Below, piece after piece: positions 13,469 through 61,227 of a stretch of DNA of 64,000 bases; position 1 is the stretch's first letter, and the number at the start of each line of letters is the position of its first letter. The notes under the pieces are model-generated. The model worked only from the letters and a program-made list of their open reading frames with translations, ran no database searches and was not told the origin of the DNA. The DNA lies in the IMG/VR virus record IMGVR_UViG_3300033121_001593, positions 79,319-143,318 of that record. One strand, written 5' to 3'. Position numbers and translations under genes: made by a program. The stretch is from a virus. Taxonomy: Duplodnaviria; Caudoviricetes.

Positions 13469-13672
13469 TTAAGAGGGTCGGGACTTGGCGATATCGCTGG
13501 TGACTAGGTCCTTGGCGGCCTGGATGGCGGCGGCCCGTGAGGAGGCCCAAAAGTCGTGGGTCAGGACGTGGCGGCCGGCCTTCTCGATGACGGCCTGAGA
13601 GAGATCGTCGCTGCCCTTGAACGTTACCTTGATCGTGTAGCCCTGGAAAGGCCGGGTGTAAGTGCTGGTCAT
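13469..13672 (-). CDS. Hypothetical early protein
   Basis: First ORF behind the promoter at 13721-13791; AAAGGA SD. Confidence 0.6.
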   Translation of the reverse strand: MTSTYTRPFQGYTIKVTFKGSDDLSQAVIEKAGRHVLTHDFWASSRAAAIQAAKDLVTSDIAKSRPS

Positions 13673-13720
13673 GTCGGGGTCCTTTGCGCTCGCCGTTCCG
13701 AATTTCGATCCTATAGCTCT

Positions 13721-13791
13721 ATTATACTCCTATCGTTTAACTTGTCAAGCGGTTTATGGCCTTTTGGCGAAAACTCGTAAAATTTAAGGTT
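13721..13791 (-). promoter_or_regulatory. Early promoter (family, type A)
   Basis: AACCTTAAA box ... TTGACA-16-TATAAT. Confidence 0.8.
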
Positions 13792-13940
13792 GGGCGGCGA
13801 GGCGCGTTGGCCGGCCCGAAATCGCCTTGACGGGCCGGCCATTCGTGCCCGCTACGGCCCAAAAACGGGGGGTAGACGGGCTTTTAGGGAATAGCCGGCC
13901 CGGTAGTATCGGCGGGGGCGTTACAGGCCCCTTGGGGCGC

Positions 13941-14219
13941 TCACGGGCGGGGCGGGGGGCGCTTGATCGAGGCCCGGTACATACGCCAGGCCAGGAGCGA
14001 AAAGACAAGCTGGAAGATCATAGCGGCGGTGGCGATCATGGCGACGGCTAGCAGGGGCGGGCGGTCCACGTAGACGGCTCCGCCCGCGCAGACGATGCCG
14101 GCGATCACCATGCAGGCGCAGAGGATCATGTAATGAGCATAGTCGGCGTCCTTCCATTCCGCCAGGGGGCGGTCGCTGATACCGAGCAGGCGATGGCGCA
14201 CGAAGGGCCGGAGCTTCAT
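13941..14219 (-). CDS. Two-TM membrane protein
   Basis: Two hydrophobic helices. Confidence 0.55.
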   Translation of the reverse strand: MKLRPFVRHRLLGISDRPLAEWKDADYAHYMILCACMVIAGIVCAGGAVYVDRPPLLAVAMIATAAMIFQLVFSLLAWRMYRASIKRPPPRP

Positions 14220-14575
14220 CCGGCCTCCACGTAGAGATAGATGACGGCGACCGGCTCGTTGCGGGGCATCACGCCCGGAACCTCGACCGGGCGGGTGATG
14301 ATCAGGCCCAGGCGCTCGGCAGCCTCGGCGCGCTCGCCCATCAGGCAGGCGGTCAGATAGCCGGCCATGAAGCCGATATCGGGCAGGATGACGTGCGACG
14401 CGCCTAGCCCGTGGCGCACGAGCGTATCTAGCTGCGGGGTCAGGGGCTGGCTATAATCGAGGATGGCCGGCCGCGGACCCTCCCGGACCTCACAGTCGCC
14501 CAGTAGGGCGGTTAGGTTGGCGCGGTCCTTCATCGACAGGGGCCAGCCGTAGTTATAGACGACGGGGGTTGACAT
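14216..14575 (-). CDS. Hypothetical protein
   Basis: 119 aa, coupled to its neighbours. Confidence 0.55.
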   Translation of the reverse strand: MSTPVVYNYGWPLSMKDRANLTALLGDCEVREGPRPAILDYSQPLTPQLDTLVRHGLGASHVILPDIGFMAGYLTACLMGERAEAAERLGLIITRPVEVPGVMPRNEPVAVIYLYVEAG

Positions 14576-14581
14576 TGATCC

Positions 14582-15601
14582 TTAATTCTCCTTATTCGGG
14601 ACCGGGTGATAGCCTTTCTTGATCTCGCCAAGGTCGGCGCGCCCGCGCAGGCTCTGCGGGCGAAAAAACGTCCCGACCATACCGGGTCGACCAAACAGCG
14701 GGGCGTCGGCGTCATAGTGCGCCCAGTGAGCACGGACTTGGTGCAGCCGGCGCTTGTGGCCCGTCGCGCCAGACGCCGCGACGTCGTCATCGACCCGCTT
14801 CTGCAACTGCTTGATCCGCAGCCATTTGTAGGCGACCGGCTCCTGGCCGGCGCGCGCCATACGGCGGCGCTCGGCACGCTGGTGGCGGATCGGCTCAGGC
14901 TCCGAGAGCGTCACGTTACGGCAGTTCATGAGCGAAAGAACAAAGGCGAAAGGGGAGATTAGTTTCTGCGCGAGTATCTGGTTGAGGAGATGAATCTCCG
15001 GCCGCTCAGGGTCCTCGCCGGCAAGGGAAAACGCGAAAAACATGCGCGTACCTATATCCTTACCGGGAAACGCCCGCCCGTCCTCGGTTAGATAAAGCGC
15101 GGCGAACGCCTCGGCCTTGACCGCTCCCATCATCATGACATAGGCGCGAATCCCTAAAATAAAGCCGGGTACAATACCGTCCTCTAAGGCACGAGACCGG
15201 GCGGCCTGAAGCGTAGGTAGGCTCAAGTTGTCCTCTAGCGACTTCCGCGCGTCCTTTCTGTCGCCGCCCGTCAGAAGGTTAGAAAAAAATCGCTCTAACG
15301 TCTTCCTCCGCACCGCTCCCGCGCGCCGCTCGACAGGGATAGGCGTGCAGACAATATGTGCCCCTATGCGCTGAATACCGGCCGGCAGGCCGGGTCCCTC
15401 CGCCGCCATAGACGGCGGACACGCGAACTCGATCCATGTCTCCTCGCCGGGGGCGGTAAGCCGATGAAAGTCATCAGAAAGTGACCAAATCCACTGGTCA
15501 CTTTCCTCGAAAAACCAATATGCCGCCTCCGTGGCGTCAACCAGCGTCGCCTGGTCTTTGACCCAGGCCAGATCGGGGTCAAGCTCTAGAATTCCTAACA
15601 T
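14582..15601 (-). CDS. Conserved-type phage hypothetical protein
   Basis: 339 aa; C-terminal RRLHQVRAHW...PLFG...RG...IKKGY motif of the kind seen in many phage proteins. Confidence 0.65.
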   Translation of the reverse strand: MLGILELDPDLAWVKDQATLVDATEAAYWFFEESDQWIWSLSDDFHRLTAPGEETWIEFACPPSMAAEGPGLPAGIQRIGAHIVCTPIPVERRAGAVRRKTLERFFSNLLTGGDRKDARKSLEDNLSLPTLQAARSRALEDGIVPGFILGIRAYVMMMGAVKAEAFAALYLTEDGRAFPGKDIGTRMFFAFSLAGEDPERPEIHLLNQILAQKLISPFAFVLSLMNCRNVTLSEPEPIRHQRAERRRMARAGQEPVAYKWLRIKQLQKRVDDDVAASGATGHKRRLHQVRAHWAHYDADAPLFGRPGMVGTFFRPQSLRGRADLGEIKKGYHPVPNKEN

Positions 15602-15888
15602 CGCTGCTTCTCCTTGGGATAATTTGGGATAACGTGGGATACTGTGGGATATTCCGCCTCACAGGCCAGGCAGATATCGCCGGCCTTGCTCATGGCGTAG
15701 TGGCCGACCCAGCGGCCGCAATCGATGCAGCGCAGCACGCGGCGGGCGTCGACGGTTAGCTCCCAGGCCAGCCGCCATTCGACCAGGCCGGCCGCTTGGG
15801 CGGCGGCGAGGAAGCCCTGATCGCCGCCATCGGCCAGCGCGGTCATCAGGGCTTGCCTCTCGCCGATTGTGATAAAGCTAGTCACCAT
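15595..15888 (-). CDS. Small Zn-finger protein
   Basis: CIDC...CLAC; GAGGAGG SD; overlaps the TROVE stop. Confidence 0.55.
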   Translation of the reverse strand: MVTSFITIGERQALMTALADGGDQGFLAAAQAAGLVEWRLAWELTVDARRVLRCIDCGRWVGHYAMSKAGDICLACEAEYPTVSHVIPNYPKEKQRC

Positions 15889-17329
15889 CCTCCTCATTTG
15901 CGCCGGCCACGTTTGCGCCCTCGAAGGCCGCAATGAAGTGCATGAACTGAGACGACCAGCCGGTGACCTCAGCGGTCCAGACTCCCGCATAGCTCACGCC
16001 GCGGCTATGGCCCGAAATGTCGGTGATGTAGTTGCGGGCGGCCCATGGCTCCGGCATCCGTCCGCTATCATCCATATCCTGCGAGTCGCTGAAGACGATC
16101 AGCCGGTCAGCCGGGGCACCGCGCCGATCCGCCTTGATGAAGTCCAGGGCCTGGCGGGTGAAGATACCACCGCCGCCCAGACGCCCGGAGGCGCGCCTGA
16201 TCTCGTCCATCAGGGCAAAGCCGCGCCGACGCTTCAGTAGCTCGGTCTGGTGCGTCTGCCCCAAATCGCTGCCGGCAGTAGCATAGACCTGGACCTTGAC
16301 CGCCTGCTCGGCCGCCAGCATGGCCAGGGCCGCGGCGGCGTCCAGCCAGGAAAGGTCGCTCTGCCCGGAGAGCCTGCCGTGCTCCATCGATCCCGATACG
16401 TCAACAACGAGCACGGTCTCGCCGGCCAGCTTGGGGGCGGTCGCCAGCGCCCGGAACATCATAGCCTCGATCTCGCCCTGCCAGCGGGGCGCTGCCCGGC
16501 CGGCGGCGATGAAGTTGATCGGCAGCAGCCAGCGCGCCGGGGCCGTCTCGAAGTAGGCCGCGATGGCGGCCCGGTCCACGCCCTCCCGCTCCATCAGGGC
16601 CAGGTTACGCAGGAAGGCCAGGCCGGGCAGCCGGCGCTCGGCCATCAGGCGCTCGAACGTCTCACGCTTGTTCGCTCCGGCGCTCAGGGCCACCTCCCAG
16701 GTATCGGGGGGCGTAACATGGCCGGCCTTTAGCTCGGCCAGGGCGCGGGCGTTGCGCGGCGTCGGGACCGGGTGCAGCAGGCGCGCGGCGTCTCGCAGGG
16801 TGACGGCGTGCCCCTTGCCCTGGTACTTGGCCAGTTGATAGTCATCGAACTGAGCAAAGGCGTGAGCCAGCCCGGTCTTGAGTTGGCTGGCCAGCGGCGC
16901 GCGCGGCTTGCCGGCGGGGGTCGGGTTTTCCATGGCGTAGAGCGTGAGGGCCTCGGTGATGCCGTCGGCGCGCCCGACGATCACGGGTAACAGCTCGGCC
17001 ACCAGCGCCCGGTGGGCGGGGTACTTGAGCATCTGGATTGCCACGAACAGGGGAACGTGGCGCAGGCCCTGTTCGTTGCGCGCCTGCCAGGCCAGACGGG
17101 CGACGACCGCCGGCTCGACCTCAGGCACCAGCTTGCGGATCACGTCCGCGGTCACCGCGCCGCGCTCATAGAATTTGTCCTCCCAGAGCAGGTTAGAGAG
17201 GATCGCTCGCGCCAGCAGGGCGTCCGATCCCTGCAGGGCGGCCGGCGCGCCCGCGCCTCCGGCCACGCGCGCCTTGGGGTCCATCGCGCCCTTGCGGCTC
17301 GGCTTGGGGGTTGGCTTGTTGGTTCGCAT
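15878..17329 (-). CDS. Ro60/Rsr-like TROVE-vWA RNA-binding protein
   Basis: LLWEDKFYE, GLRHVPL, FDDYQLAKY, PDTWEVALS, AFLRNL, vWA MIDAS VDVSGSM, IVFSDSQ. Confidence 0.92.
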   Translation of the reverse strand: MRTNKPTPKPSRKGAMDPKARVAGGAGAPAALQGSDALLARAILSNLLWEDKFYERGAVTADVIRKLVPEVEPAVVARLAWQARNEQGLRHVPLFVAIQMLKYPAHRALVAELLPVIVGRADGITEALTLYAMENPTPAGKPRAPLASQLKTGLAHAFAQFDDYQLAKYQGKGHAVTLRDAARLLHPVPTPRNARALAELKAGHVTPPDTWEVALSAGANKRETFERLMAERRLPGLAFLRNLALMEREGVDRAAIAAYFETAPARWLLPINFIAAGRAAPRWQGEIEAMMFRALATAPKLAGETVLVVDVSGSMEHGRLSGQSDLSWLDAAAALAMLAAEQAVKVQVYATAGSDLGQTHQTELLKRRRGFALMDEIRRASGRLGGGGIFTRQALDFIKADRRGAPADRLIVFSDSQDMDDSGRMPEPWAARNYITDISGHSRGVSYAGVWTAEVTGWSSQFMHFIAAFEGANVAGANEEDGD

Positions 17330-21630: not shown

Positions 21631-21900
21631 TTACTCGCAGGCTCCCTTGATGTAACGGGTATCGGCGGGCAGCGCCCAGACCGGGATGGTTGAGGGGGTG
21701 GGCCGGGCGATGGCGGCGAAGCCGTCGATACCCTGCTCGTCAGTGGTGGCCTCGTCGGCAATCTCGTACCAGATCGCTGCGGCTGCCCAGTCGGTGTAGG
21801 TGGCGACCGTCTCGGTGCCGGTGACGATGACGATCCGGCGCTCGAAGGGGTTGTCTAGGGCGGTATAGGTGGGGGCGGTTGCGGTGGTCTGGGTGGTCAT
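21631..21900 (-). CDS. Hypothetical early protein
   Basis: First ORF behind a family promoter. Confidence 0.6.
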   Translation of the reverse strand: MTTQTTATAPTYTALDNPFERRIVIVTGTETVATYTDWAAAAIWYEIADEATTDEQGIDGFAAIARPTPSTIPVWALPADTRYIKGACE

Positions 21901-23137: not shown

Positions 23138-23302
23138 CTAGCCGATGATGCTCTGGACCAGGCCGGCCTTCGGCCCGTTCTCTACGATGAATTCCATAAC
23201 CTCGTCGTCGCTGCAGGCCATAACGTCGAAGCTATGCTGGCGTCCGTTGCTGGTCATTACTACCTTGAAGGTCCTGAGGCTGCGGTTGCTGGTGGGGGTC
23301 AT
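23138..23302 (-). CDS. Small early protein (54 aa, not in the ORF track)
   Basis: MTPTSNRSLRTFKVV...; AAAAGGA SD; first ORF behind a promoter. Confidence 0.55.
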   Translation of the reverse strand: MTPTSNRSLRTFKVVMTSNGRQHSFDVMACSDDEVMEFIVENGPKAGLVQSIIG

Positions 23303-23841: not shown

Positions 23842-24058
23842 TTGGGGCCTCCCCGGTCGGCACGGTCGCGCCGATCTTGTTCAGTAGGTGAACGATCAGA
23901 TTGATCGTTCCGGCCGTGAGCAGGGGTTCGCTCACCGTCTGGCCGGCGTGAATACCGCTGCGGGCGACACGCTGCGTCGGCAGGGACGCTTCCAGCAGCG
24001 TCCGCGCCATCGCGCCGGCGGCTTTGATCTCGGCGGCGTCGAAGGTTCCTGTGGTCAT
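23834..24058 (-). CDS. Hypothetical protein
   Basis: Coupled ORF. Confidence 0.5.
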   Translation of the reverse strand: MTTGTFDAAEIKAAGAMARTLLEASLPTQRVARSGIHAGQTVSEPLLTAGTINLIVHLLNKIGATVPTGEAPSE

Positions 24059-24291
24059 GATTCTCTCCGGGTGGTGAACTCGAAACTGATCGCCCAGCCC
24101 GTCTCGGCCTCGTCTACATAGACCTGGGCAAAGGCGCGGCGGCCGTCGACCATATCCACACTGACGCCAGCCACGTCGCCCTCGGTCCAGGTTACGGCGG
24201 CGCTCACGGCTCCGCCATGATCGACGGCGGCCTCGAAGGCCCCTGCACAGGCGGCCTCCCGCTCGGTGACTGTCATTGTATCGGTGGTCAT
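24055..24291 (-). CDS. Hypothetical protein (Leu-free)
   Basis: 78 aa, no Leu. Confidence 0.55.
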   Translation of the reverse strand: MTTDTMTVTEREAACAGAFEAAVDHGGAVSAAVTWTEGDVAGVSVDMVDGRRAFAQVYVDEAETGWAISFEFTTRRES

Positions 24292-24345
24292 TTAGATAGG
24301 CCCTTTCACGCTGTCCGGGCGGGGAATTCCCCGCCCGGTGATTGA

Positions 24346-27423: not shown

Positions 27424-27446
27424 GATGGGAGTCCTTTCTATCGCTA

Positions 27447-27492: not shown

Positions 27493-27507
27493 GTTTGGTT
27501 GTTGGCT

Positions 27508-27756
27508 TTAGACGCCTTCGCCCTCGAAGCGCATTCGGGCATCTGCGACTGCCTGATTGGCGGCGGCCTGGTTCCGGCTGGCGGCCTGCCAGGCGGCCTC
27601 GGCGGCGTTGACCTTTGCGTCGTCGTCGGCGTTGCTTGGGTTACGCTGCATCCGGGCCTGCGCCCAAACCTTCCAGGCTGCGTCGGCGGCCTGATTGGCC
27701 TCGAAGCGTGCCTGCCGTGCTGCTCTTACCTGGGGGTGCTGGTTCTTGGCTGCCAT
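27508..27756 (-). CDS. Ala-rich early protein (Leu-free)
   Basis: First ORF behind a promoter. Confidence 0.6.
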   Translation of the reverse strand: MAAKNQHPQVRAARQARFEANQAADAAWKVWAQARMQRNPSNADDDAKVNAAEAAWQAASRNQAAANQAVADARMRFEGEGV

Positions 27757-30180: not shown

Positions 30181-30399
30181 CTAGTAGCGAATGCTCGCCT
30201 CGTTGCGGGTCTCAGGCTCGTCGCCGTTGTCGAAAATGATACCGCTGCCGTCGCAGTCGTAGCACCAGTTGTAACCGCTGGCTGCCGGGGCCTGTCCGTC
30301 TCGGCTGCCGCAGCCGCCGCAAGTCTCGCAGATCGGGCTGTCGCCTTCGGCTGCGTCGGGGGTCATTTCGGTCGTCTCGGTCCAGATTGTGCGGGTCAT
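30181..30399 (-). CDS. DnaJ-type Zn-finger early protein (Leu- and Val-free)
   Basis: CETCGGCG...CYDCDGSG; first ORF behind a promoter. Confidence 0.65.
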   Translation of the reverse strand: MTRTIWTETTEMTPDAAEGDSPICETCGGCGSRDGQAPAASGYNWCYDCDGSGIIFDNGDEPETRNEASIRY

Positions 30400-30543: not shown

Positions 30544-31737
30544 TCATTCATAGTCGCCGGCCCGCCCGACCAACTCGACCAGAAAGGCGATGGTGGCCTG
30601 AGCGTCATTGTAGACGGTGAACTCGTCGCGCCGCGGCCAGGAGATCGGGTTAGGCGGGGCGACCGCGTGCATCGAGTCGTACAGGCCCTGGGCGGCCCCG
30701 TGGTGCCCGTCGTCCTGGCGGACGGTGACCTTTTTCTCCCGGCCCAGCTTGACCGAGAATACCGCCATGCAGGCCGGATCATCGCTGCTACCGCCGCCCC
30801 AGCGTGCGCCCTTCAGGCTCGTGTAGCTGATCGACTTATGCGCCCAGTCGGCAAAGTACAGGCCCTTGCCCAAGGCCCAGCCGTTTGAGTATGACGGGCG
30901 GATAACTAAGCCCTGCGTCATGATCGACCAGAAGTTCGGCGTCTTGCTACCGTGAAAGAGCAGCCGGCCTTTTTCGCCGGGCTTCCAGGCGTCATACTTG
31001 GCCTGCGTGGCGAAGTGGATCACCCGCCAAATCCGGCCGATGTTCGGCTTGCTCTGAGCCTCGACCAAGGCCAGGACTTGCGCCCGCTCAGCCGGCGTCG
31101 CCTCCCGGATATCGAGGCCGATGGCGTCCAGCACCGTTTGATCGGCGGCGGTAGGCTGCGGGCGTGCCCTCAGGCTGGCGCGTAGCTGATCGACTAAGGC
31201 TTGCTCGTCGGCGAGCTTTGCGCCGATCACATGCCGCGCCGCGCCGGCCGGCAGTAGCTCGTCGGCGACCTTGCGCATCTTACGGGGCAAGACCCGCCAT
31301 AGCTCGACCAGGCCGGCGTTGACGGCGCTGACCGTCATCTGCCCGTTGAGGCCGCCGATCCGGTCCAGGATGCGCTGCGCCTCGACTAGCTGCGCCTCGG
31401 TGATGCTCTCAGCGTCCGAGTAGCTGGCGGCGATTGAGACGCCCGCCTTTTGCTGCAGCCAGTCCACCAGCCAGCCGACCGAGCCGGCCAGGGGCTTGAA
31501 AGCGACCGCGTCCAGCGTGCGCTTTTGCGCCGTCATATCCCGATAATCGTGCTTCTCCCGCGTCCGAATCGTCGGGTTCCACTCCGACATAGGGAATACC
31601 TTTGACTGGCCCGCCGTGCCCACCCGGCCCCAGCGCGCCGTGAAGGTCGATCCCGCGGGGTCGGCCTTCATCTCGTAGAATTTATTGGCGTTGGCGTCCG
31701 CCGCCACCTTGATCCCGTACCAGAAATCTGTCGTCAT
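30544..31737 (-). CDS. PARP-family ADP-ribosyltransferase with WGR and regulatory domains
   Basis: NANKFYEM...RWGRVG (WGR); LLFHGS, GKGLYFAD.A.KSISY and DEFTVY give the H-Y-E triad. Confidence 0.9.
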   Translation of the reverse strand: MTTDFWYGIKVAADANANKFYEMKADPAGSTFTARWGRVGTAGQSKVFPMSEWNPTIRTREKHDYRDMTAQKRTLDAVAFKPLAGSVGWLVDWLQQKAGVSIAASYSDAESITEAQLVEAQRILDRIGGLNGQMTVSAVNAGLVELWRVLPRKMRKVADELLPAGAARHVIGAKLADEQALVDQLRASLRARPQPTAADQTVLDAIGLDIREATPAERAQVLALVEAQSKPNIGRIWRVIHFATQAKYDAWKPGEKGRLLFHGSKTPNFWSIMTQGLVIRPSYSNGWALGKGLYFADWAHKSISYTSLKGARWGGGSSDDPACMAVFSVKLGREKKVTVRQDDGHHGAAQGLYDSMHAVAPPNPISWPRRDEFTVYNDAQATIAFLVELVGRAGDYE

Positions 31738-32538: not shown

Positions 32539-33345
32539 TTAGCGCCAGCCGGCGCTCGCTCGGTCGGTGATTTGCTCGATGGCGACACGTAGATTGTCGC
32601 TGATTTTTTCGGGCGGCAGATCGAACGTCTTTGACCGTTCCACGTACTGCGCCGCCCAGGCCGTCAGGGCGGCGACCTCGCCGGCCTCCACCACGCGCCC
32701 GCCAAAGCCAAGGCGCTTGGCCGTCGCCAGATTCGTCGCCTCACGCATACACTCGACCGGCCAGGCGGGGTTCCAGGTCAGGGCGTCGAAGTCCAGCGAC
32801 GGGGGATTGCCCGATGACAGGCTCTCCAGCGATGATAGCGCCGGCACCAAGAACATCAGCCAGTCCTTGACCGTCGCGCCCTCCGGCCAGCCCTGCCGTG
32901 CCTGGTTGCGCGCCTGGCTGGCGTAAGCCTGCACCAGGGCCGACCGGCGGTGGATCATGTACCAAAGATGAGCCACCGACTGGCCCAGCGGGGTCGTTAC
33001 GTAGAGCAAGGGGCTGGCCAGCCATTCCAGGGCGGTCGGGTTGGACCGCAAGACCAGGCCCAGGAACTTGGTTAATTCCATGCCGGCGGCGTCGATTGTC
33101 GCCGGCACGCTCAGGCCCAGGACCGCCCAGTCCAGCTTGTCCAGGACCTCACGCGTCGCCGTCCGGTCAACCCGGAAGTACCAGGCGGTCGGGGGAACGT
33201 ACACGAAGCGCAGATCGTGGTCGCTCGTCTCCGCGCCCAGGCCGCGCGCCCGTGAGCCGGCGTCTACCGCATAGATCACGGTGTAGCCCGTCGCCTGCTC
33301 GATGGCCTGTAAAAGGCCCTTGATTTCGTCTCGATATGTCGTCAT
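32539..33345 (-). CDS. DNA pol-beta superfamily nucleotidyltransferase (YcgL/RlaP-like)
   Basis: AVDAGSRARGLGAETSDHDLRFVY, ELTKFLGLVLRSNPTALEWLASP. Confidence 0.85.
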   Translation of the reverse strand: MTTYRDEIKGLLQAIEQATGYTVIYAVDAGSRARGLGAETSDHDLRFVYVPPTAWYFRVDRTATREVLDKLDWAVLGLSVPATIDAAGMELTKFLGLVLRSNPTALEWLASPLLYVTTPLGQSVAHLWYMIHRRSALVQAYASQARNQARQGWPEGATVKDWLMFLVPALSSLESLSSGNPPSLDFDALTWNPAWPVECMREATNLATAKRLGFGGRVVEAGEVAALTAWAAQYVERSKTFDLPPEKISDNLRVAIEQITDRASAGWR

Positions 33346-35133: not shown

Positions 35134-35451
35134 CTAGAAGCTGGCGAAACCGTTGCTGCAGTCGGTCATCCAGCGGCTGGTGGCCTCGGCGCTGAATGCC
35201 TGCGCCTGTGCCTCGGCGTCGGCCTCGAAGGTGCCCTCGGTGCCGAATTCTGCGAACATGGCCGCCATACGGGCCATCTCGGCCTCGATGACTTCGGTCT
35301 GCTCGGCGTCGGCCTCGGTGGCGATACCGCTCTCGATGATGAACCAGCCGGTGGCGGTCTGGAAGGTCTGCTCGGTGCGGGCAGCTTGGCGGGCTGCCTG
35401 GCGGGTGGCGATGATTGCGGTCCAGTCCTGGGTGGTGGTTTGGGTGGTCAT
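35134..35451 (-). CDS. Acidic early protein (Leu-free)
   Basis: 105 aa, no Leu; first ORF behind a promoter divergent from the CCA-type gene. Confidence 0.65.
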   Translation of the reverse strand: MTTQTTTQDWTAIIATRQAARQAARTEQTFQTATGWFIIESGIATEADAEQTEVIEAEMARMAAMFAEFGTEGTFEADAEAQAQAFSAEATSRWMTDCSNGFASF

Positions 35452-35510: not shown

Positions 35511-35582
35511 ATTTTACTCCTACTTGTTCAATTTGTCAAGGGGTTGAACCTTAAAACTTTGCCTTTTTTCAAAACTCGTTTG
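35511..35582 (-). promoter_or_regulatory. Early promoter (type B)
   Basis: TTTAAGGTT-7-TTGACA-17-TAAAAT. Confidence 0.8.
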
Positions 35583-35619: not shown

Positions 35620-35659
35620 ATATTGCTACTTGACAAACTGAATGATATCATGATATAAT
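35620..35659 (+). promoter_or_regulatory. Promoter of the CCA-type gene (subtype shared with rtcB)
   Basis: ATATTGCTAC-TTGACA-18-TATAAT with TGn extension. Confidence 0.75.
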
Positions 35660-35706: not shown

Positions 35707-37029
35707 ATGAAGATCAGCCCCGCAGCAGAGACCATCAGCCGAATAATCGAGACCGCAGGCGGAAGCGCCTGGATCACGGGCGGGGCCTGCCGCGACGAGA
35801 TCATGGGCCGGACGCCTCGCGACTTCGACATCGAGGCTTTCGGGATCACGAAGGAAGCGGCCTGTGAGGCTATCCGGGCCGCAGGCTTCGCCTGCAAGAT
35901 CGCCGGAGCCGCCTACAGCATTATCATCGCCACGGTGGACGGCGAGGATATCGAGATTAGCATCAGCGCCGGCACGATTGCCGAGGCTGCCGCCCGGCGC
36001 GACTTCACCGCCAACGCCATCTACTTCCGCCCGGCCACCGGCGAGTGGGCCGACTCCTTCGGCGGCCGCGCCGATATCGAGGCCGGCATCATTCGAGCCA
36101 CGCCCGGCTTCGCTCAGGACCCCGGCCGCATGATGCGGGCCGCCCGCTTCGCCGCCCGCTTCGGCTGGACCATCGAGCCGGCGACGCGTGACATGATCCG
36201 GGCCATGGCCGGTCGTATGAGCGAAGTGGCCACGGAGCGCATCTGGCCGGAATTCGCCAAGGCTTTCGAGGCCGACCGCCCCGGCGACTTCATCCGGGCC
36301 ATGGCCGAGATCGGCATCATGGGCCACTTCCCCGAAATCGCCGCCATCTGGGACTGCCCGCAGGACCCGGCTTGGCACCCTGAGGGACCGACCGGCCCCC
36401 ACTCCGCTCACACGATGGACGCCGCCGCCGCCATCTGCCGGCGCGACGGTATCACAGGCGAGGATCGGATCGCCTTCATCGCCGGAGCCATGGTGCACGA
36501 CTTCGGCAAGGCTACGACGACGGTGACGCGGGAAGACGGGCGCATCGCCAGCCCCGGACACGCCGAGGCCGGTATCGAGATCGCCGCCCGCTTTTTCGCC
36601 CGCTGCGGCATCGCCGGCAGCCCGGTGGCCGAGCGAGCCATCGCCATGACGGCTGAGCACATGAGCCACACGGGCGAGATCAGCCCCCGCACGGTGCGCC
36701 GGATCGCCGCCCGCATCGCCCGCCATGGCGCGACGATCAGCGACATCGCCCGGATCATCGAGGCCGACGCCTCCGGCCGCCCGCCCATCCCGGCGGGGAT
36801 GCCTGAGGGTGGCCGGCGCATGATCGAGATCGCCGCCTCCATGGCGATTGTGGACGCCGCCCCCGTGGCCATCATCATGGGCCGGCACTGCATCGCCGCC
36901 GGCATGGCCCCCGGTCCCCGCATGGGCCGGATCGTGCGAGCCGCCTTCGAGGCTCAAATCGACGGGGCCTTCGAGGACGAGGCCGGCGGGATCGCCTGGA
37001 TCGCCGAACACGCCGCCGAAATCGCATAG
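35707..37029 (+). CDS. cca: Class II tRNA nucleotidyltransferase (CCA/CC-adding) fused to an HD phosphohydrolase; leucine-free
   Basis: GGACRD...DFDIE (motif A), RRDFTANA, QDPGRMMRAARF, ERIWPE; HD domain HPEG..GPH, VHDFGK, GHAEAG, ADASGR; C-terminal GRH...PGPRMG. Confidence 0.92.
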   Translation: MKISPAAETISRIIETAGGSAWITGGACRDEIMGRTPRDFDIEAFGITKEAACEAIRAAGFACKIAGAAYSIIIATVDGEDIEISISAGTIAEAAARRDFTANAIYFRPATGEWADSFGGRADIEAGIIRATPGFAQDPGRMMRAARFAARFGWTIEPATRDMIRAMAGRMSEVATERIWPEFAKAFEADRPGDFIRAMAEIGIMGHFPEIAAIWDCPQDPAWHPEGPTGPHSAHTMDAAAAICRRDGITGEDRIAFIAGAMVHDFGKATTTVTREDGRIASPGHAEAGIEIAARFFARCGIAGSPVAERAIAMTAEHMSHTGEISPRTVRRIAARIARHGATISDIARIIEADASGRPPIPAGMPEGGRRMIEIAASMAIVDAAPVAIIMGRHCIAAGMAPGPRMGRIVRAAFEAQIDGAFEDEAGGIAWIAEHAAEIA

Positions 37030-46704: not shown

Positions 46705-48024
46705 ATGAATACCCATCTTCTGCTTAACCGATACCGAGGCCAGGCGAACTATGGCGAAATCGCCAAGGACGCGGCGAAGGCCGCCCAAGCCAATCCCGCC
46801 ATGACCGAGGCTGAGTTACTGGCCTACATCGAGTCGCGCTACGCGCCGGCCACCCTACTGCAGCCGATGAAGCAGGCCGCGCCGCTGGCGGTATTCGGCG
46901 CTGACCTGATCGACCCCGGCGCGTTTGCGCAGATGTACTCCGTCTTGCGCCTGCCCGTGGCGGTACGCGGGGCCTTGATGCCGGACGGGCACCAAGGGTA
47001 CGCGATGCCCATAGGCGGGGTGGCGATCCTACGGGACGCCGTCTCGCCCTCATTCGTTGGCTATGACATCGGCTGCATGATGATGGTCTCGACCTTCGAG
47101 ATCACGCCGCAAGACTTCGCCGGCAGCCGCCCGGCGCTGGCCGCGGCCCTGCGTAACGTTACGTCGTTCGGCCTGGGCGCGATGACGCCGGCTGCACAAG
47201 GCCGGTTCGATCACCCGGTCATGGACGATCCCCGCTGGTCGGAGACGGCCATCTTACGCTCGCTGAAGCCCCTGGCCCGTGAGCAGTTAGGCAGTTCGGG
47301 CGGTGGCAATCATTTCGCCGATCTGTGCGAGGTGACCTGGGCGACAGGGCGCGACGCGCAGATTGCCCTCATGACGCACTCCGGCAGCCGGGCCGCCGGT
47401 CATAAGCTGGCGACGCACTATGTCTCTGTTGCCCGGAGAGAGACGGCCGCCATCGCCCGTGGGATCGAGCCAGGCTACGAGTGGCTGCCCGACTCCAGCG
47501 AGGCCGGCCAGGAATATCTGGCCGCCATGCAGTTGATGGGCGACTACGCGCGGGCCAATCACGAATGTATCCACGCCGCCTATGCCGAGGCCATCGGAGT
47601 CCGACCGGACTGGACGGTCTGGAACCGGCACAACTTCGCCTGGGTCGAGGAAGAAGGGATCGTACACCGCAAGGGCGCAACGCCGGCCCGCGCTGGCGAT
47701 ATCGGGATCATCCCCGGCAGCAGCGGAACCCCGTCCTATATTGTCCGAGGCAAGGGCAACGTCGCGTCGATCAATTCGTCTTCTCACGGCGCAGGCCGGC
47801 CCTTCTCACGCAGTGAGGCCAAGCGCCGGCACAACGCCGGCCAAGTCGACGGCTGGATGACCGAGCACGACGTTCTGAGCTTCGGCCTGGCCCCCGACGA
47901 GACCTATGCCGCCTACAAGGATATCGCGGCCGTCATGGCGGCGCAGACCGATCTGGTCGATATCGTCGCCACGCTCATCCCGCGCGTCGTCGTCATGGGC
48001 GGGCCGGCCGACGACGGCGATTGA
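46705..48024 (+). CDS. rtcB: RtcB RNA 2',3'-cyclic/3'-phosphate-5'-OH ligase
   Basis: MPDGHQGYAMPIGG, VGYDIGC, LGSSGGGNHF, THSGSR, HNF, VHRKGAT, SSHGAGR, DETYAAYK. Confidence 0.95.
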   Translation: MNTHLLLNRYRGQANYGEIAKDAAKAAQANPAMTEAELLAYIESRYAPATLLQPMKQAAPLAVFGADLIDPGAFAQMYSVLRLPVAVRGALMPDGHQGYAMPIGGVAILRDAVSPSFVGYDIGCMMMVSTFEITPQDFAGSRPALAAALRNVTSFGLGAMTPAAQGRFDHPVMDDPRWSETAILRSLKPLAREQLGSSGGGNHFADLCEVTWATGRDAQIALMTHSGSRAAGHKLATHYVSVARRETAAIARGIEPGYEWLPDSSEAGQEYLAAMQLMGDYARANHECIHAAYAEAIGVRPDWTVWNRHNFAWVEEEGIVHRKGATPARAGDIGIIPGSSGTPSYIVRGKGNVASINSSSHGAGRPFSRSEAKRRHNAGQVDGWMTEHDVLSFGLAPDETYAAYKDIAAVMAAQTDLVDIVATLIPRVVVMGGPADDGD

Positions 48025-49185: not shown

Positions 49186-49237
49186 GGATAGACGGAGGCC
49201 CCGCGGGGCCTCCGATTTTGGTTAGAGGAGTAAGCCC

Positions 49238-55094: not shown

Positions 55095-55116
55095 CGCCCG
55101 CCTCATTCTCGACCGG

Positions 55117-55169
55117 AAAAGAGAAGCCCCGCGGTTTTACTCAAACGAGAAACCGCGGGGCTTCTCTCG
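55117..55169. terminator. Bidirectional hairpin with conserved loop
   Basis: GAGAAGCCCCGCGGTTT...AAACCGCGGGGCTTCTC; loop shared with 32112-32170. Confidence 0.6.
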
Positions 55170-55223
55170 TTCACCGAATTCCCGTCGACGGGAATTGAGC
55201 GCGCGAGAACGGCCCGGCCGCCG

Positions 55224-55804
55224 TCCTTGATTTTCAAGATGCCCCGCCGGCGATCTTGGGCAGCGAGATGGCCCACCCGGCGATCTTGCGTTTCAAGATG
55301 CCCCGCCGGCCGCCTTGAATGACAAGATGGCCGGCGCGGGATGCTTGCCGGCCAAGGTCGCCCGCCCGCCGCCTTGGGCGACAAGATGCCGCGACCGTCG
55401 CCGGTCGCTCACGAGACGCCGGCATGGGCGATCTTGTTTTTCAAGATGCCACCCCGGCCGATCTTGCGCGCAAGCGCCGCCGCCCGCCCGCCTTGCAACA
55501 CGAGATAGCCCGCCCCCGATCTGGCGCGACAAGATAGCCGCCGCGGCCGCCTCGCCTCACAAGATGACCGGGCCGGTCCCCTTGGTCACAAGATGACCGC
55601 CCGCCGCTATCTTGCTCACAAGGGGGCGTGGGCCGGCGGCCTTGCCCGCAAGACGCCCGTCGCCGCTGATCTTGTGAGCGAGACGCCCGGCCCCGTTATC
55701 TTGCGGAGCAAGATAGCCCGGCCGCCGTTCGCTTGGCGCAAGATCAGCCCGGCGGCTATCTCGGACGCCAAGATGCCCGCCCGCCCGGCCTTGCGATTCG
55801 AGAT
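55224..55804. repeat. Array of ~20 palindromic sites (consensus ATCTTG-N4/5-CAAGAT) at ~29.7-bp period
   Basis: Right half-sites at 55235, 55264, 55294, 55323, 55353, 55382, 55412, 55442, 55471, 55501, 55530, 55560, 55589, 55619, 55649, 55679, 55709, 55739, 55769, 55799. Confidence 0.85.
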
Positions 55805-55870
55805 AGCCGCCCGCCCAGCCTTCCCCGGCTTCTACCCGCCCGCGGCGACGCGCCCCCTGTTCAACTTGTC

Positions 55871-55898
55871 AGGATACTTACCCCGTTCAATCCGTCAA
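55871..55898 (-). promoter_or_regulatory. Putative promoter pointing into the array
   Basis: TTGACG-16-TATCCT with the family TGAACG spacer; overlaps CAGGAT/CAAGAT half-sites. Confidence 0.4.
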
Positions 55899-56040
55899 GA
55901 TACTTTTGGGCCGGCGACGCATACCGCGCGCGATGCGGGCCTTTTTTTTCTCTCCCCGGAGCCGCCCCGCCGCGCGCGTTTCAAGTGGGTTAATCTTCCC
56001 CGGTTGCCGCTTCCGTCCCCCGGCCCGCCCTTTTCCGCCC

Positions 56041-56630
56041 CCGGCTGCGGGGTTAGATCGGGGCTGAAGGAAGACGCGATAAGCCCTACCCGCGGCGCGC
56101 CAGTGAAGCCTGACGAGCTACGAATAGGACTTATCACGACGGTCTGCGTGAGTTGAGTCGGTGCAGTTTTGTTCGTCGCGGGAATCGGCAGCGGGGCGTT
56201 TGTTTAGCCGCCACCGATCCGCAAGGTCTTGCGCGCGCCCAGGTCTGTCGTATTTACCGCGCGGCGGTTACGTCTCACGACGCCCCGCTCTCCTTGCATA
56301 AGCCCAGCGGATCGCTCCGCTACAGGACGGGCTATTGACTTGGGCCGAATACGCCACCGGCCCAAGCCGTCTGGGAGTCTGGCTCACGCCCTGGCCGATG
56401 TCCCCTGTGGGGGGTCGCATCGCCCGACGTGCCAGGCGGTCCTATTTCGCCCCTCCTGTCGCCGCGGTCACCGACCGCAAAACAACAGGCCCAGGCGATT
56501 GTCGATCTATATGGTCACCAGGATGCTACGGAGTAGGACGCTCCGCCGCTACGGAGTAGGACGTTCCGCCTGGATATGGCCCGGAGTTGCGCAGGCACTT
56601 CAACGCTGCGCCCGGACGCGACAAAGCCGA
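56041..56630 (+). other. Long structured non-coding block (ncRNA or ssDNA origin element)
   Basis: Nested inverted repeats with G.T wobbles on the + strand; 23-bp tandem repeat at 56525-56570. Confidence 0.45.
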
Positions 56631-56635
56631 GTCGG

Positions 56636-56872
56636 TTAGGACTCGGCTTTGTCGTCTTGCAAGGCATCGGCCGCCTTGCGGAGTTGCTTCGGTGTGATCC
56701 CTAGCGCCCGGCAGAATTCGACCAGCGTGATCGAGCCGCCCTCGATACCTACAAAGGTATCGAACCAGCCGCCGAAGTCGAGCCGGGATGCCGACGGCGT
56801 CCAGGTGACACTGAGGCCGGAGGACTCGTGACCACTTGCTTTCTCGTGGGGGAGGTAGATCGTTTTCGGCAT
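56636..56872 (-). CDS. Hypothetical protein (lone minus-strand gene in the right arm)
   Basis: MPKTIYLPHE..., behind TTGACA(57057-57062)-17-TATGAT. Confidence 0.55.
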   Translation of the reverse strand: MPKTIYLPHEKASGHESSGLSVTWTPSASRLDFGGWFDTFVGIEGGSITLVEFCRALGITPKQLRKAADALQDDKAES

Positions 56873-57080
56873 AGGGCAAAAAGAAATCGCTGCTTTCTCG
56901 TGGGCTTGAGCCGATTGCAATTAGTGCGCAGACAACACTAGCGGCAACAAGCTCACGAGAAAGAAGCGATTCGGTTGTGTGTCTGCGTAACCTGTAACGC
57001 TTTGGCTTGCAATGGCCCTCGCGCTACACGGACATCATACACTACCCGCTTCTCCCTGTCAAGGGGGTAAAATCGAATCT

Positions 57081-57152
57081 CAACCTTAAATTTTTTGAAT
57101 ATCGTCAAAAGCGCCCTTTTTCGCTTGACAAACTGAATGATCGGAGTATAAT
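57081..57152 (+). promoter_or_regulatory. Early promoter (type A)
   Basis: AACCTTAAA box, TTGACA-16-TATAAT. Confidence 0.8.
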
Positions 57153-57204
57153 AGAATCATAGGATTGAAACACGGCAGAGACCGAAGCAAAGGACCGCCC
57201 GACA

Positions 57205-57537
57205 ATGACCACCGCCACCCGCACCGAACTGACCAAGAAAATTCGCTGGACGACCGGTCACCAAATGACGATCAGGGACTTTGCAACGATCTGCGGTAAC
57301 AGCGATCACGCCGGCCTGAACGCTATCAGCGCCGGGATCAAGTTCGGGATCGAGACGGGCCGCCTGCCGAACTGGATGAGCCTGGGCAGCGACAAGTTTT
57401 TCACGATCAATCACAGCCGGGCGACCAACACCGAAGCCCGCGAGCGGATCATCACCGCCGCCCTGAGCCTGACCGACAACAGCACCGCCAGCGCCTGCAA
57501 AGCCCTGCAGGCCGCCTTCGGGATCACCACCCGCTAG
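57205..57537 (+). CDS. Hypothetical early protein
   Basis: First ORF behind a promoter. Confidence 0.6.
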   Translation: MTTATRTELTKKIRWTTGHQMTIRDFATICGNSDHAGLNAISAGIKFGIETGRLPNWMSLGSDKFFTINHSRATNTEARERIITAALSLTDNSTASACKALQAAFGITTR

Positions 57538-58602: not shown

Positions 58603-58917
58603 ATGACCACCCTAACCGCAGCCACCACCAACGAAATCGACCAGGCAGCCCATGACGCGGCGAACGCTGCAAGCCGAGAGCGTTTCGCCCGCCATTGCAC
58701 CCTGGCCATCTTGGAAAACGGCGCAGGCGAAGTCATGGCAGCCCGCCGACGTTTCGCAGGGACCCCTAACGCAGTATGGGCCGCCGACGTAGAGCGAAAC
58801 GAAGCGAAATTCAAGAAGGCCCTGCGGGAAGCCAACGACCGCTTCGAGGGTATGACCGAGAGCAAGAAATACGCCAAGGCCGCCGCAGAGGCCGCCGAAC
58901 TGGGCATCGAATTCTAA
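58603..58917 (+). CDS. Hypothetical early protein
   Basis: First ORF behind a promoter. Confidence 0.6.
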   Translation: MTTLTAATTNEIDQAAHDAANAASRERFARHCTLAILENGAGEVMAARRRFAGTPNAVWAADVERNEAKFKKALREANDRFEGMTESKKYAKAAAEAAELGIEF

Positions 58918-59409: not shown

Positions 59410-59768
59410 TGTCACGCAGCGACCCCAAACTTTGGATGACCGGGACGGCCTATGACGGCCTGAAAGCCGCCTGCCGATACATCGCCCAAATCGAGAAGCG
59501 CGGCCAGGAGTTGGCCGCAGAGGCAGAGACGGCCCGCAGGCGATTGCGGGAATGGCGCAAGGAGTCCGAGCGCAGCGACGCCGAGGCCCTCAAGGCGAAG
59601 GCCGCGACGATAGAGCTAGCCTCGATCTTGGGCAAGGTCACGGAAGACTGGACCGTCGAGCAATGGAAACTCTACACCGGCCTGAACGTTCGTGAGATCG
59701 CCGAAGCCCAAGGCTGGATCGCACTGGCCAGGTGGGAGGCCGGCATCGAAACGGAGGATCAGTCATGA
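59409..59768 (+). CDS. Hypothetical protein
   Basis: AAGGAG SD. Confidence 0.55.
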   Translation: MSRSDPKLWMTGTAYDGLKAACRYIAQIEKRGQELAAEAETARRRLREWRKESERSDAEALKAKAATIELASILGKVTEDWTVEQWKLYTGLNVREIAEAQGWIALARWEAGIETEDQS

Positions 59769-59920
59769 CCCCCTGGCAAGCCCTCACGCCCGCACAGCGC
59801 GACGCTATCGTAATCAAGGCCATGGCCGCCAACGCGGTGCAGATCGTCAAGCTAGCCGAGCTACGCCGGTCCATGGCCGCCCGTAAGAAGACCAACGCCA
59901 AGAAGGGAAAACGCCGATGA
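59765..59920 (+). CDS. Small basic protein
   Basis: GGAGG SD. Confidence 0.45.
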   Translation: MTPWQALTPAQRDAIVIKAMAANAVQIVKLAELRRSMAARKKTNAKKGKRR

Positions 59921-60228
59921 GCACCACGATTGCTATTCTCAAGTTCGACCCCCTCACCCTGGAGATACCCAACGTCCCCATGATCGAGGACGAGGTTGTT
60001 ATCCAGTTACCCCCGGTCCATCTGACGATCCTCGATCTGAGTATGGGCGGGGCCATCGACGGGCACCCGCATATCGGAACCGACGCCCCGCTGATCAACG
60101 TGACGATCAAGCTGACCGCCCCCCTGGCCCTGGGCACGGTGGTGGACATGATCGTCGGGGGGCTTGACCTGTGGCGCGACGCCTGGCAGGCCGGGCAGGA
60201 CGCCGTGAAGGGCAAGGCCCTGCTATGA
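59917..60228 (+). CDS. Hypothetical protein
   Basis: Coupled ORF. Confidence 0.5.
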   Translation: MSTTIAILKFDPLTLEIPNVPMIEDEVVIQLPPVHLTILDLSMGGAIDGHPHIGTDAPLINVTIKLTAPLALGTVVDMIVGGLDLWRDAWQAGQDAVKGKALL

Positions 60229-60722
60229 CCGATTATCCGCGCGAGGTAAGCTACACCGTCACCCGCTGGGAATGCGGCTGGTCGAATCCAGGCGGCACGC
60301 CCTGCCGGCACCTGACCTTTGAGCGCGCCGCCGAATGCGCCGCCGATCATGCAACCCGCGAGAAGATGCTGGCCGAACGTGACCGCCTACTGGCGTCCGT
60401 CAACGCCGGCCTGGCCCGCGACGAGGCCCGACACATCGTCGCCGATCTGCTCGACGGGCAATCGGTCAGCGCCGTCGCCGAGGCTCACGGCAAGACGCCG
60501 GCCAGAGTGCGCAGCCTGTTCTATTACTGCATCCACCGCGCCATGGCCGATTATACCCGGACCCGCGCCGAGGCCGGCGCTGATCGGGCCGAGCTTCAGA
60601 GCCTGCGCCGTTTCCGCCTGGTATCGGCGATCCTTACCCATGCCCGCCAAAACCGCGCCCTCGTCGGCAAGGCCCTGACCGCCTGGTGGCCGACCGCCAA
60701 GCTACCGATGGAGCTATGGTAA
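60225..60722 (+). CDS. HTH DNA-binding protein (paralog of 19164-19682)
   Basis: LLDGQSVSAVAEAHGKTPARVRSLFY. Confidence 0.6.
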   Translation: MTDYPREVSYTVTRWECGWSNPGGTPCRHLTFERAAECAADHATREKMLAERDRLLASVNAGLARDEARHIVADLLDGQSVSAVAEAHGKTPARVRSLFYYCIHRAMADYTRTRAEAGADRAELQSLRRFRLVSAILTHARQNRALVGKALTAWWPTAKLPMELW

Positions 60723-60884
60723 CGGCCCTACGAGCGCCCTCACGCAGGGCGGCCATATAATCTAACGGCCCCTAACCGCAAAAGCCCGTAGACCCCCCGT
60801 TTTTTGACTTGAGCGGGCTGCTAGCCCCCGGTCCAGAAGCATACCCAAAGGCCCGACTCGGTAAGAGTCGGGCCTTTGCGCGCC

Positions 60885-60958
60885 CAACCTTAAAAGTTTG
60901 CGACTTTTTGGCAAAAGGCTATTTTTCGCTTGACAAACTAAACGATCTGATATACAAT
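60885..60958 (+). promoter_or_regulatory. Early promoter (type A)
   Basis: AACCTTAAA box, TTGACA-17-TACAAT. Confidence 0.8.
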
Positions 60959-61005
60959 GGCTATAGTGAAGTAACACAGACGCAGGCACAAAGGACCGCC
61001 CGACA

Positions 61006-61227
61006 ATGACCAGCACCAGCAGCTACCCAACCCCAAAGACCGGCGAATACGCCGGCAGCCTGAGCGGCACCGAGCGCGATGATACACAGCACGCACAGTG
61101 GTGCAGCGGCTGGGACCGCACGAAGGCATGGGCCGCGGGTAAGGGCGCTACACCGGTCGGGGATCACGAGCCGGCCGCAACCGTCAGAGGACGCAACGAT
61201 TTTCTGCGAGGACCCTATGTCGAATAG
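61006..61227 (+). CDS. Hypothetical early protein
   Basis: First ORF behind a promoter. Confidence 0.5.
   Translation: MTSTSSYPTPKTGEYAGSLSGTERDDTQHAQWCSGWDRTKAWAAGKGATPVGDHEPAATVRGRNDFLRGPYVE

Follow-up and report, generated by a model that had tools for sequence, protein, structure and literature searches.

Why would a phage make its first proteins with little or no leucine (Leu)? The question is raised by the last 64 kb (here, the window) of a single-contig virus record of the Caudoviricetes (IMG/VR IMGVR_UViG_3300033121_001593; 143,318 bp, 63.6% GC). Gene calling with a codon-usage model trained on the long open reading frames (ORFs) of the same genome gave 228 genes, and the 13-64 kb part of the window is organized as two divergent arms of early operons with about 35 sigma70-type promoters. 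The ORFs that stand first behind one class of these promoters are depleted of Leu, and a 440-residue enzyme of the CCA-adding family, encoded in the same region, has none at all.

Leucine content of the promoter-proximal ORFs

The promoters of the early region share the sigma70-type consensus TTGACA-A.CTGAACGA..-TAnAAT. Fifteen promoters of the window (TTGACA-N17-TAnAAT) have in addition the upstream element AACCTTAAA, which is placed either ~36 nt 5' of the -35 box or, in inverted form, immediately beside it; the word occurs 17 times at no more than one mismatch, compared to 2.9 occurrences expected. The 15 ORFs that stand first behind these promoters form the first-ORF set and include: (i) 13469-13672, 21631-21900, 23138-23302, 24346-24546, 27508-27756, 30181-30399, 31739-31966 and 35134-35451 in the minus arm, and (ii) 37178-37366, 39250-39459, 42688-43014, 48868-49185, 57205-57537, 58603-58917 and 61006-61227 in the plus arm. 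The promoters, the ORFs with none or one Leu and the two boundaries of the set are as follows.

35511..35539, minus strand: example of a AACCTTAAA-class early promoter, with the inverted element abutting TTGACA, an N17 spacer with AGGAG, and TAAAAT
-35 boxes at 13748, 21974, 23377, 24626, 27835, 30482 and 32052, minus strand: other AACCTTAAA-class promoters (n=7)
-35 boxes at 37101, 39164, 42276, 48792, 57125, 58526 and 60930, plus strand: other AACCTTAAA-class promoters (n=7)
35134..35451, minus strand: zero-Leu first ORF, acidic, 105 aa, divergent from the enzyme gene described below (binomial P=8e-5 for 0 Leu)
30181..30399, minus strand: zero-Leu, zero-Val first ORF, 72 aa, with two CxxCxGxG motifs
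27508..27756, minus strand: zero-Leu first ORF, Ala-rich, 82 aa
24346..24546, minus strand: zero-Leu, zero-Val first ORF, 66 aa, 39% Ala
24055..24291, minus strand: zero-Leu second gene of the 24346-24546 operon, 78 aa
37178..37366, plus strand: first ORF with one Leu, 62 aa
42688..43014, plus strand: first ORF with one Leu, 108 aa, behind promoter 42276 plus 384 nt without an ORF
13469..13672, minus strand: first ORF, 67 aa, 3 Leu, left boundary of the Leu-poor set
61006..61227, plus strand: first ORF, 73 aa, 2 Leu, right boundary of the Leu-poor set

The first-ORF set contains 31 Leu in 1,241 aa (2.5%), exactly the count on which the original prediction of a Leu-poor first wave was built, versus 9.0% in the capsid gene (391-1362), for which about 9% had been given. 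Recounting also returned the four Leu-free first ORFs that had been named, the absence of Val from 24346-24546 and 30181-30399, the Leu-free second gene at 24055-24291 and the single Leu of 37178-37366 and of 42688-43014. The zero-Leu ORFs are maximal ORFs; thus, it makes no difference to their lack of Leu which start codon is chosen.

The small size of the first ORFs and their low T content (12.9% T vs 15.7% in other small ORFs) would favor the view that the deficit merely follows from base composition, from short length or from wrongly called ORFs. This view is scarcely credible when set against the controls. The length-matched control, formed by 41 other ORFs of 50-115 aa from the region, contains 8.6% Leu; when 15 control ORFs were drawn at random 100,000 times, Leu never fell below 5.4% (permutation p<1e-5), and the two groups differ in Leu by the Mann-Whitney test (p=3e-7). 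When the amino acid content expected of each gene is computed from its own nucleotide composition at each codon position, the first ORFs have an observed/expected Leu ratio of 0.61 and the other small ORFs one of 1.23, which leaves a two-fold deficit that is specific for Leu. The corresponding ratios are 1.16 and 1.24 for Ile, 1.48 and 1.00 for Met, and 3.04 and 1.58 for Phe, so that these three residues are enriched over expectation, while Val does not differ from the controls (0.60 and 0.61). The ORFs of the set have, besides their maximal extent, positive codon scores, and several are conserved in relatives. Thus, with length-matched ORFs normal, the nucleotide control passed and Ile, Met and Phe not depleted, the depletion of the first ORFs is Leu-specific and is neither a composition nor a length effect. 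In line with the original prediction, the deficit persists under both controls and is not shared equally by the NTN codons. The alternative that had been offered alongside it, selection for U-poor mRNA or for Ala/Thr-rich proteins, is rejected, as all six Leu codons are depleted and TTC, ATC and ATG are enriched or normal.

The Leu content also follows the position of a gene in its operon. It climbs from 3.5% at rank 1 (median 2.7) to 6.7% at rank 2 and about 9% at ranks of 3 and above (Spearman rho 0.47, p=5e-7), as would be anticipated from a first wave with a reduced need for Leu; the comparison with rank had been suggested along with the original prediction. Two other readings of the small ORFs were tried and rejected: clustering of Leu at the ORF ends, as the Leu positions are uniform along the first ORFs, and intrinsic disorder, as Phe, Trp, Ile and Cys are not depleted.

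A leucine-free enzyme of the CCA-adding family

The clearest instance of Leu exclusion is an enzyme.

35707..37029, plus strand: class II tRNA nucleotidyltransferase with HD domain (CCA-adding enzyme family), 440 aa, first gene behind promoter 35630
35630..35659, plus strand: sigma70-type promoter of the enzyme gene, TTGACA-N18-TATAAT, with the start codon 48 nt downstream

The promoters at 35630 (plus) and 35511-35539 (minus) are divergent, an arrangement that is also found in the related contigs L004, L005 and L057. The enzyme contains 0 Leu, 9 Val (all GTG) and 13% Ile; at the Leu rate of the genome, 0 Leu in 440 aa has P=7e-18. Its Pfam matches, all above gathering scores, are in order PolyA_pol (PF01743, 8e-15), PolyA_pol_RNAbd (PF12627, 8e-12) and HD (PF01966, 7e-7). 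The conserved motifs include GGxxRD, DxD, RRDFTxNA (RRDxTxNA), DPxR (motif D) and the H..HD..D of the HD domain. In alignment with homologues of normal Leu content, G25, G26, R29, D30, D41, E43, R97, R98, D99, T101, N103, D138, R141, H232, H264, D265 and D354 are invariant, and D39 is replaced conservatively by Glu in one homologue. The AlphaFold2 (AF2) model has a predicted local distance difference test score (pLDDT) of 93.5 and a predicted template modelling score (pTM) of 0.87. Foldseek aligns this model (E ~1e-15, TM 0.6-0.7) with the CC-/CCA-adding enzymes 3wfo-3wfs, 1miv and 5hc9. The best fold matches are 3wfo-3wfs, entries of the CC-adding enzyme of A. aeolicus.

All six Leu codons, which occupy two codon boxes, are missing from the enzyme gene, while TTC, ATC, ATG, GTG and GCT are freely used. 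The 44 alignment columns that hold Leu in normal homologues are filled in the phage enzyme by Ile (20), Met (8), Ala (4), Phe (3), Trp (2), Val (2) and others. Avoidance of alternative start codons was rejected as a cause, since the depletion extends in equal measure to CTC, CTT and CTA and since GTG occurs in the enzyme gene. An mRNA endonuclease with codon or motif specificity was likewise rejected: GCT and TTC occur, and no motif is common to the two Leu boxes without also covering Phe. A constraint on the amino acid rather than on a nucleotide motif would also fit removal of Leu at the protein level, by which the phage proteins would go unrecognized by a protease, chaperone or immune sensor of the host that reads Leu-containing segments. 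Such an escape is very improbable, given that the buried core positions of Leu are taken by the equally hydrophobic Ile, Met and Phe, that the predicted fold of the enzyme is unchanged and that unrelated proteins share the trait only by their position behind promoters; we know of no recognition system that is specific for Leu over Ile.

The absence of Leu is conserved. A search of 5.8 billion proteins gave eight close homologues of the enzyme (P0001-P0008, 70-98% identity), each of which, as called, contains at most one Leu. The one Leu of P0006 falls within a mis-called N-terminal extension, and that of P0007 comes from the called protein only, the reading at the DNA level having covered L001 and L003-L006. 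Read as DNA, the enzyme genes of L001, L003, L004, L005, L006 and the window (6/6) are without a Leu codon in the true ORF, and an additional homologue on L057 has 0 Leu. Contigs of this clade come from the JGI samples 3300035675 and 3300033521, the runs SRR21010549, SRR29748436, SRR28382717 and SRR21705850, and NCBI GCA_038152965.1. The next homologues (~33-46% identity), several of which bear Chloroflexota names, contain 7.6-14.3% Leu; the 94 full-length proteins among them have 11.4 +/- 1.6% (minimum 7.6%), and 12 further metagenome homologues 10.6-13.2%. The metagenome scan for the enzyme clade recovered as its sole member one already in the protein-search set, scans of IMG/VR with the enzyme and with the capsid protein recovered no relatives, and a megablast search of INPHARED with a 10 kb query found no near-identical phage. 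Within the clade alignment, at least 354 substitution events are counted, 150 of them in Ile/Val/Met/Phe columns and 0 to Leu (naive P ~1e-16). Selection against Leu in the enzyme is ongoing, and the protein, judged from its model and conserved motifs, is folded, very probably active and held Leu-free by this continuing selection.

Several small ORFs behave in the same manner. The 35134-35451 family has eight homologues at 65-96% identity, 8/8 with 0 Leu in the true ORF. The orthologue of 30181-30399 in L004 has 0 Leu, and in L057 the same slot is occupied by a non-homologous ORF of 69 aa with, likewise, 0 Leu. L004 and L057 each have a diverged homologue of 27508-27756 with 66 aa and 0 Leu; the orthologues of the second gene 24055-24291 have 1 Leu in 73 aa (L003) and 2 Leu in 63 aa (L001). 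Across whole contigs, first ORFs contain less Leu than other ORFs in L001 (4.0 vs 7.1%, p=4e-4) and in L057 (2.6 vs 8.1%, p=9e-4).

A softer constraint, in which Leu is avoided in the most heavily and rapidly translated ORFs as a guard against tRNA queues or starvation without any absolute block, has points in its favor among the small ORFs: (i) the first-ORF codon bias is that of highly expressed genes (ACC, AGC, TTC, AAC and GCC up; NCG and GTG down), (ii) the N-termini are ACC-rich MT(T/S)QTT sequences, (iii) many first ORFs keep 1-7 Leu, and 74% of the Leu residues remaining in the set are encoded by CTG, and (iv) the depletion is graded by operon rank. Supply and demand are nonetheless an improbable cause. 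A soft preference cannot explain 0 Leu in a 440-aa enzyme over at least 354 substitutions, nor the same state in eight homologues of 105 aa. Leu stands alone in the degree of its depletion, and the codon preferences of the enzyme gene (ACG over ACC, GTG over GTC) are not those of the first ORFs. The preference for ACG over ACC is found in 6/6 enzyme genes. The Val codons are exclusively GTG in the window (9/9) and in L004 (7/7), with normal GTC use in L001 and L003, no Val codon in L005 and one in L006; a Val-codon rule shared by the enzyme gene and the small ORFs was therefore rejected, as the usage is inconsistent across lineages.

Leucine decoding at the onset of infection

The six Leu codons share only their amino acid and tRNA identity, and neighboring codons are used; thus, the constraint would lie at tRNA-Leu, leucyl-tRNA synthetase (LeuRS) or leucine itself and not at an RNA motif. 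A complete lack of Leu in every lineage is the mark of a hard block: one codon that cannot be read is enough to stop synthesis, while a soft preference would allow some Leu to remain. Whatever the cause, it is likely that Leu codons are unreadable when infection begins. The original prediction held that a first wave of proteins is built to be made without functional tRNA-Leu. Its first half, a Leu-independent first wave, is strongly supported by the Leu-free enzyme, the absence of Leu despite at least 354 substitutions, the gradient with operon rank and the recurrence in related contigs; that the failing part is tRNA-Leu, and not LeuRS or free leucine, we infer.

The decoding equipment of the phage itself bears on the duration of any block. 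The phage carries two tRNA genes for Ala, one each for Ile, Phe, Glu, Asp, Trp, Tyr and Arg, and another whose anticodon loop is odd. These genes, about 10 in all, lie at 32004-38290 of the genome, outside the window, and end in discriminator-C(C)-T, the full CCA end not being encoded. No tRNA-Leu was found in the phage genome by ARAGORN (relaxed thresholds, introns allowed) or Rfam, and no aminoacyl-tRNA synthetase, including LeuRS, among the large phage proteins scanned, such that a phage-encoded tRNA-Leu or LeuRS was rejected. Thus, the phage relies on Leu decoding by the host for its late proteins of 8-10% Leu, and any block would be limited to the start of infection. The RtcB ligase described below has its closest genomic homologues, at 53-57% identity, in metagenome-assembled genomes of Chloroflexota or Caldilineaceae (L032, from the unpublished genome G003, and also L033 and L034); together with the homologues of the CCA-family enzyme, these point weakly to a host with affinity to Chloroflexota. 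A DNA search of 401 Chloroflexota genomes with 20 kb gave no spacer-like exact match, just short GC-rich noise, to which the matches in the unpublished genomes G041 and G230 also belong.

The early region encodes a further set of proteins related to RNA repair, all with Leu.

46705..48024, plus strand: RtcB RNA ligase, first behind its own promoter (Pfam RtcB, 1.5e-74), 6.8% Leu
32539..33345, minus strand: RlaP nucleotidyltransferase (RNA-repair pathway), 11.6% Leu
15878..17329, minus strand: Ro60-like TROVE-vWA protein, 10.1% Leu
30544..31737, minus strand: protein with PARP catalytic and WGR domains, second gene behind a Leu-poor first ORF, normal Leu

RtcB of L005 and L006 contains 7.8-8.2% Leu, and the PARP-WGR protein is kept in L001, L004 and L057. 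The phage is thus predicted to encode, in RtcB, RlaP and the CCA-family/HD enzyme, proteins able to heal or seal damaged tRNA. The CCA-family/HD enzyme is the sole Leu-free member of this kit, as is expected if it is required before Leu decoding returns. Since the only Leu-free repair protein acts on tRNA 3' ends and the others need Leu, the most economical model is a block at the 3' end of tRNA-Leu. A host-imposed version of this model is proposed tentatively, as the favored account, although one that falls short of probable. At the onset of infection, Leu codons would become unreadable, the most likely cause being a host toxin or defense nuclease that disables the 3' end of tRNA-Leu, and the phage lineage would have adapted by purging Leu from the proteins needed first. 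This Leu-free set would comprise the promoter-proximal ORFs of the strong sigma70 early operons and the tRNA nucleotidyltransferase/HD enzyme. The enzyme, translated without any Leu-tRNA, may then rebuild or unblock tRNA 3' ends, alone or with host enzymes, and with Leu decoding restored, translation of operon ranks 2 and above, RtcB, RlaP, Ro60 and all virion genes could proceed. The exclusion of Leu, its specificity, its gradient along operons, its conservation in relatives, and the identity and intact fold of the enzyme are observed; the decoding block as such, tRNA-Leu as its target, the host as its cause and the enzyme as its remedy are inferred.

Several observations weigh against this host-imposed model. 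A number of first ORFs retain 2-7 Leu, and in L005 the first ORFs other than the enzyme are not depleted, even though its enzyme is without Leu and without Val; thus, just part of the first wave would be truly Leu-independent. The comparison with related phages that was proposed along with the original prediction accordingly came out divided, the depletion recurring in L001 and L057 and being absent from L005 apart from the enzyme. The enzyme is the universal core of the phenomenon, and depletion of the small ORFs is common but not universal. Val usage is also inconsistent, as the small first ORFs prefer GTC and the enzyme gene does not. In addition, the Leu-free clade carries a deletion of ~19 aa relative to the nearest homologues and of ~29 aa relative to E. 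coli poly(A) polymerase. The deletion site, at residues ~86-89, falls in the flexible loop that separates the motif A strand from RRDFT (motif B), and this loop is needed for addition of the terminal A. Together with the fold matches to 3wfo-3wfs, the deletion suggests that the enzyme may not add the terminal A alone; it may add CC but not CCA. The affinity of the host to Chloroflexota is weak, and to our knowledge no Leu-specific tRNA 3'-end toxin is described. Finally, the zero-Leu state is strictly conserved across phages of 58-65% GC, which argues for a pressure in nearly every infection. A core host trait, or a block imposed by the phage, would fit such a pressure better than an accessory defense system.

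The same strict conservation keeps alive a phage-imposed version, in which an effector, delivered with the virion or made as a Leu-free immediate-early protein, turns off tRNA-Leu or LeuRS and the enzyme later restores decoding. Host translation would be arrested, because every host protein requires Leu; the Leu-free first wave would be made during this arrest, and the middle and late phage genes would be translated once decoding is restored. Conservation of zero Leu in every lineage is as expected of a block at every infection, and the zero-Leu ORFs are the first products of the strongest promoters. The phage tRNAs (Ala, Ile, Phe, Glu, Asp, Trp, Tyr, Arg) match 55% of the codons of the enzyme gene, the highest share among genes of at least 150 aa (mean 38.8 +/- 4.6%), and Ile, Ala and Phe, which replace Leu in the enzyme, are among the residues that these tRNAs supply. 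This version is nevertheless rather unlikely: the phage is without its own tRNA-Leu or LeuRS, about 220 phage genes need Leu, some one or two positions downstream in the same operons, and no candidate effector appears among the Pfam or PHROGs results. With so many Leu-needing genes, a phage-imposed block would have to be very short, and host mRNAs would resume too. A fully programmed form, in which the lineage stops the decoding of one amino acid at each infection, host translation freezes and the Leu-free enzyme is the restoring switch, is unlikely; if true, it would be a new mode of host shut-off and of temporal gene control by amino acid exclusion.

The host-imposed model and its phage-imposed counterpart both differ from systems already described. 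T-even phages are reported, in work of the 1960s-70s, to cleave host tRNA-Leu within minutes of infection, a parallel in amino acid and in timing that favors the phage-imposed version. T4 carries its own tRNA-Leu and has early proteins that are not Leu-free; the phage described here is the opposite on both points. In stop-codon-recoded phages, the recoded codon is kept out of early genes and appears in late ones. Similarly, a codon class is missing or scarce early in this phage and normal later (8-10% Leu elsewhere). By contrast, the class consists here of six sense codons of one amino acid with unchanged meaning, and no phage tRNA or release-factor switch, the defining feature of recoding, was found. 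ACA-less mRNAs stay translatable in cells arrested by MazF, which likewise makes a gene expressible under a global block by lack of the attacked element; however, MazF hits an RNA triplet in any frame, whereas the exclusion of Leu follows the reading frame and concerns an amino acid.

Phage RNA-repair kits (RtcB or Rnl ligases, RlaP, CCA-adding enzyme, Ro60/Y RNA) are read as counters to tRNA-cleaving host nucleases, the classic case being T4 Pnkp/Rnl1 versus PrrC (PMC7824862). The early region of this phage has a comparable kit of RtcB, RlaP, Ro60-like TROVE-vWA protein and CCA-family/HD enzyme, but in none of the reported kits is a repair enzyme or a temporal gene class purged of one amino acid. 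As only the 3'-end enzyme is Leu-free, an order of events is implied. Phage tRNAs are known to replace or evade defense-cleaved host tRNAs (PMC10264068), with Retron-Eco7 and tRNA-Tyr as an example (PMC12673091). The present phage, with its ~10 tRNAs, would share an adaptation to the loss of a specific tRNA function in infection; unlike these phages, it is without a tRNA-Leu and instead drops the need for it from its first proteins. The defense nuclease Cas12a3 cuts tRNA 3' tails, an example of cleavage of the 3' CCA tail as antiviral immunity (PMC12851939). Damage of this kind could be reversed by a nucleotidyltransferase/HD enzyme. The cleavage is described as preferential for tRNA, with no Leu specificity stated (PMC12851939); if all tRNAs were attacked alike, there would be no selection for proteins without Leu. 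The bacterial Schlafen preprint makes no mention of Leu or of the acceptor end. A full-text literature search found no published account of Leu-free phage proteins, of tRNA-Leu-directed defense or of such codon avoidance, and hence no precedent for a Leu-free first wave joined to a Leu-free repair enzyme.

If Leu decoding fails early, the phage would free its earliest proteins and a translation-repair enzyme from the damaged component by purging one amino acid. Such a failure would imply that host or phage has a means, not yet discovered, of attacking specifically tRNA-Leu, LeuRS or the leucine supply, and proteins free of one amino acid in the early genes would offer a simple sequence signature of similar conflicts in other viruses. 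It would also mean that an enzyme of 440 residues can do entirely without Leu, which is relevant to protein engineering and to studies of reduced amino acid alphabets.

Small proteins, leaders and hairpins of the early operons

The zero-Leu small ORFs are priority candidates for anti-defense or take-over functions, and the small first ORFs may more generally encode such proteins. The small ORFs have no matches in Pfam or in informative PHROGs families, and the zero-Leu ones have none in Atlas either. The acidic 35134-35451 protein has no match in Pfam, PHROGs or Atlas, and the AF2 model of its family (pLDDT 54.7) is too low in confidence for fold comparison. The 30181-30399 protein has only weak PHROGs hits, to families of unknown function; in translation, its pair of CxxCxGxG motifs resembles a DnaJ-type zinc finger.

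Most first ORFs start with MT(T/S)(Q/T)T.. in ACC-rich codons (e.g., at 21900, 31966, 35451, 39250, 48868, 57205, 58603 and 61006). ACC reaches 84 per 1000 codons in the first ORFs compared to 30 elsewhere, and the ACC-rich N-termini are probably a signature of efficient initiation and high expression.

Two stretches of the window are without a clear gene. At 42305-42687 (plus), ~384 nt without an ORF separate the strong early promoter at 42276 from the one-Leu ORF 42688-43014 and form a candidate structured RNA or long leader; no Rfam family reaches the gathering score across the window. At 55095-57204 (~2 kb), the codon model gives no confident gene, just weak ORFs of 30-78 aa and an ORF of 187 aa (55593-56156) without a Pfam match.

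A GC-rich stem-loop lies between most first ORFs and the next ribosome-binding site (RBS), as at 24292-24345, 30126-30180, 39460-39525, 13347-13468 and 49186-49237, with a U-tract only after 48868-49185. A three-tier hairpin is found in two copies, at 27440-27500 (minus) and 35062-35125 (minus), directly 3' of the zero-Leu ORFs 27508-27756 and 35134-35451. Both copies precede the RBS of the following gene, and neither has a U-tract. The inner part is conserved (GCAAGCTCCTCA..CAC.GAGGCCGACC), while the outer stems diverge yet stay paired, as judged by eye; an automatic alignment of the two copies did not recover this register. The placement of the GC-rich stem-loops suggests that the first ORF forms its own mini-unit, via attenuation or a hairpin that stabilizes the 3' end.

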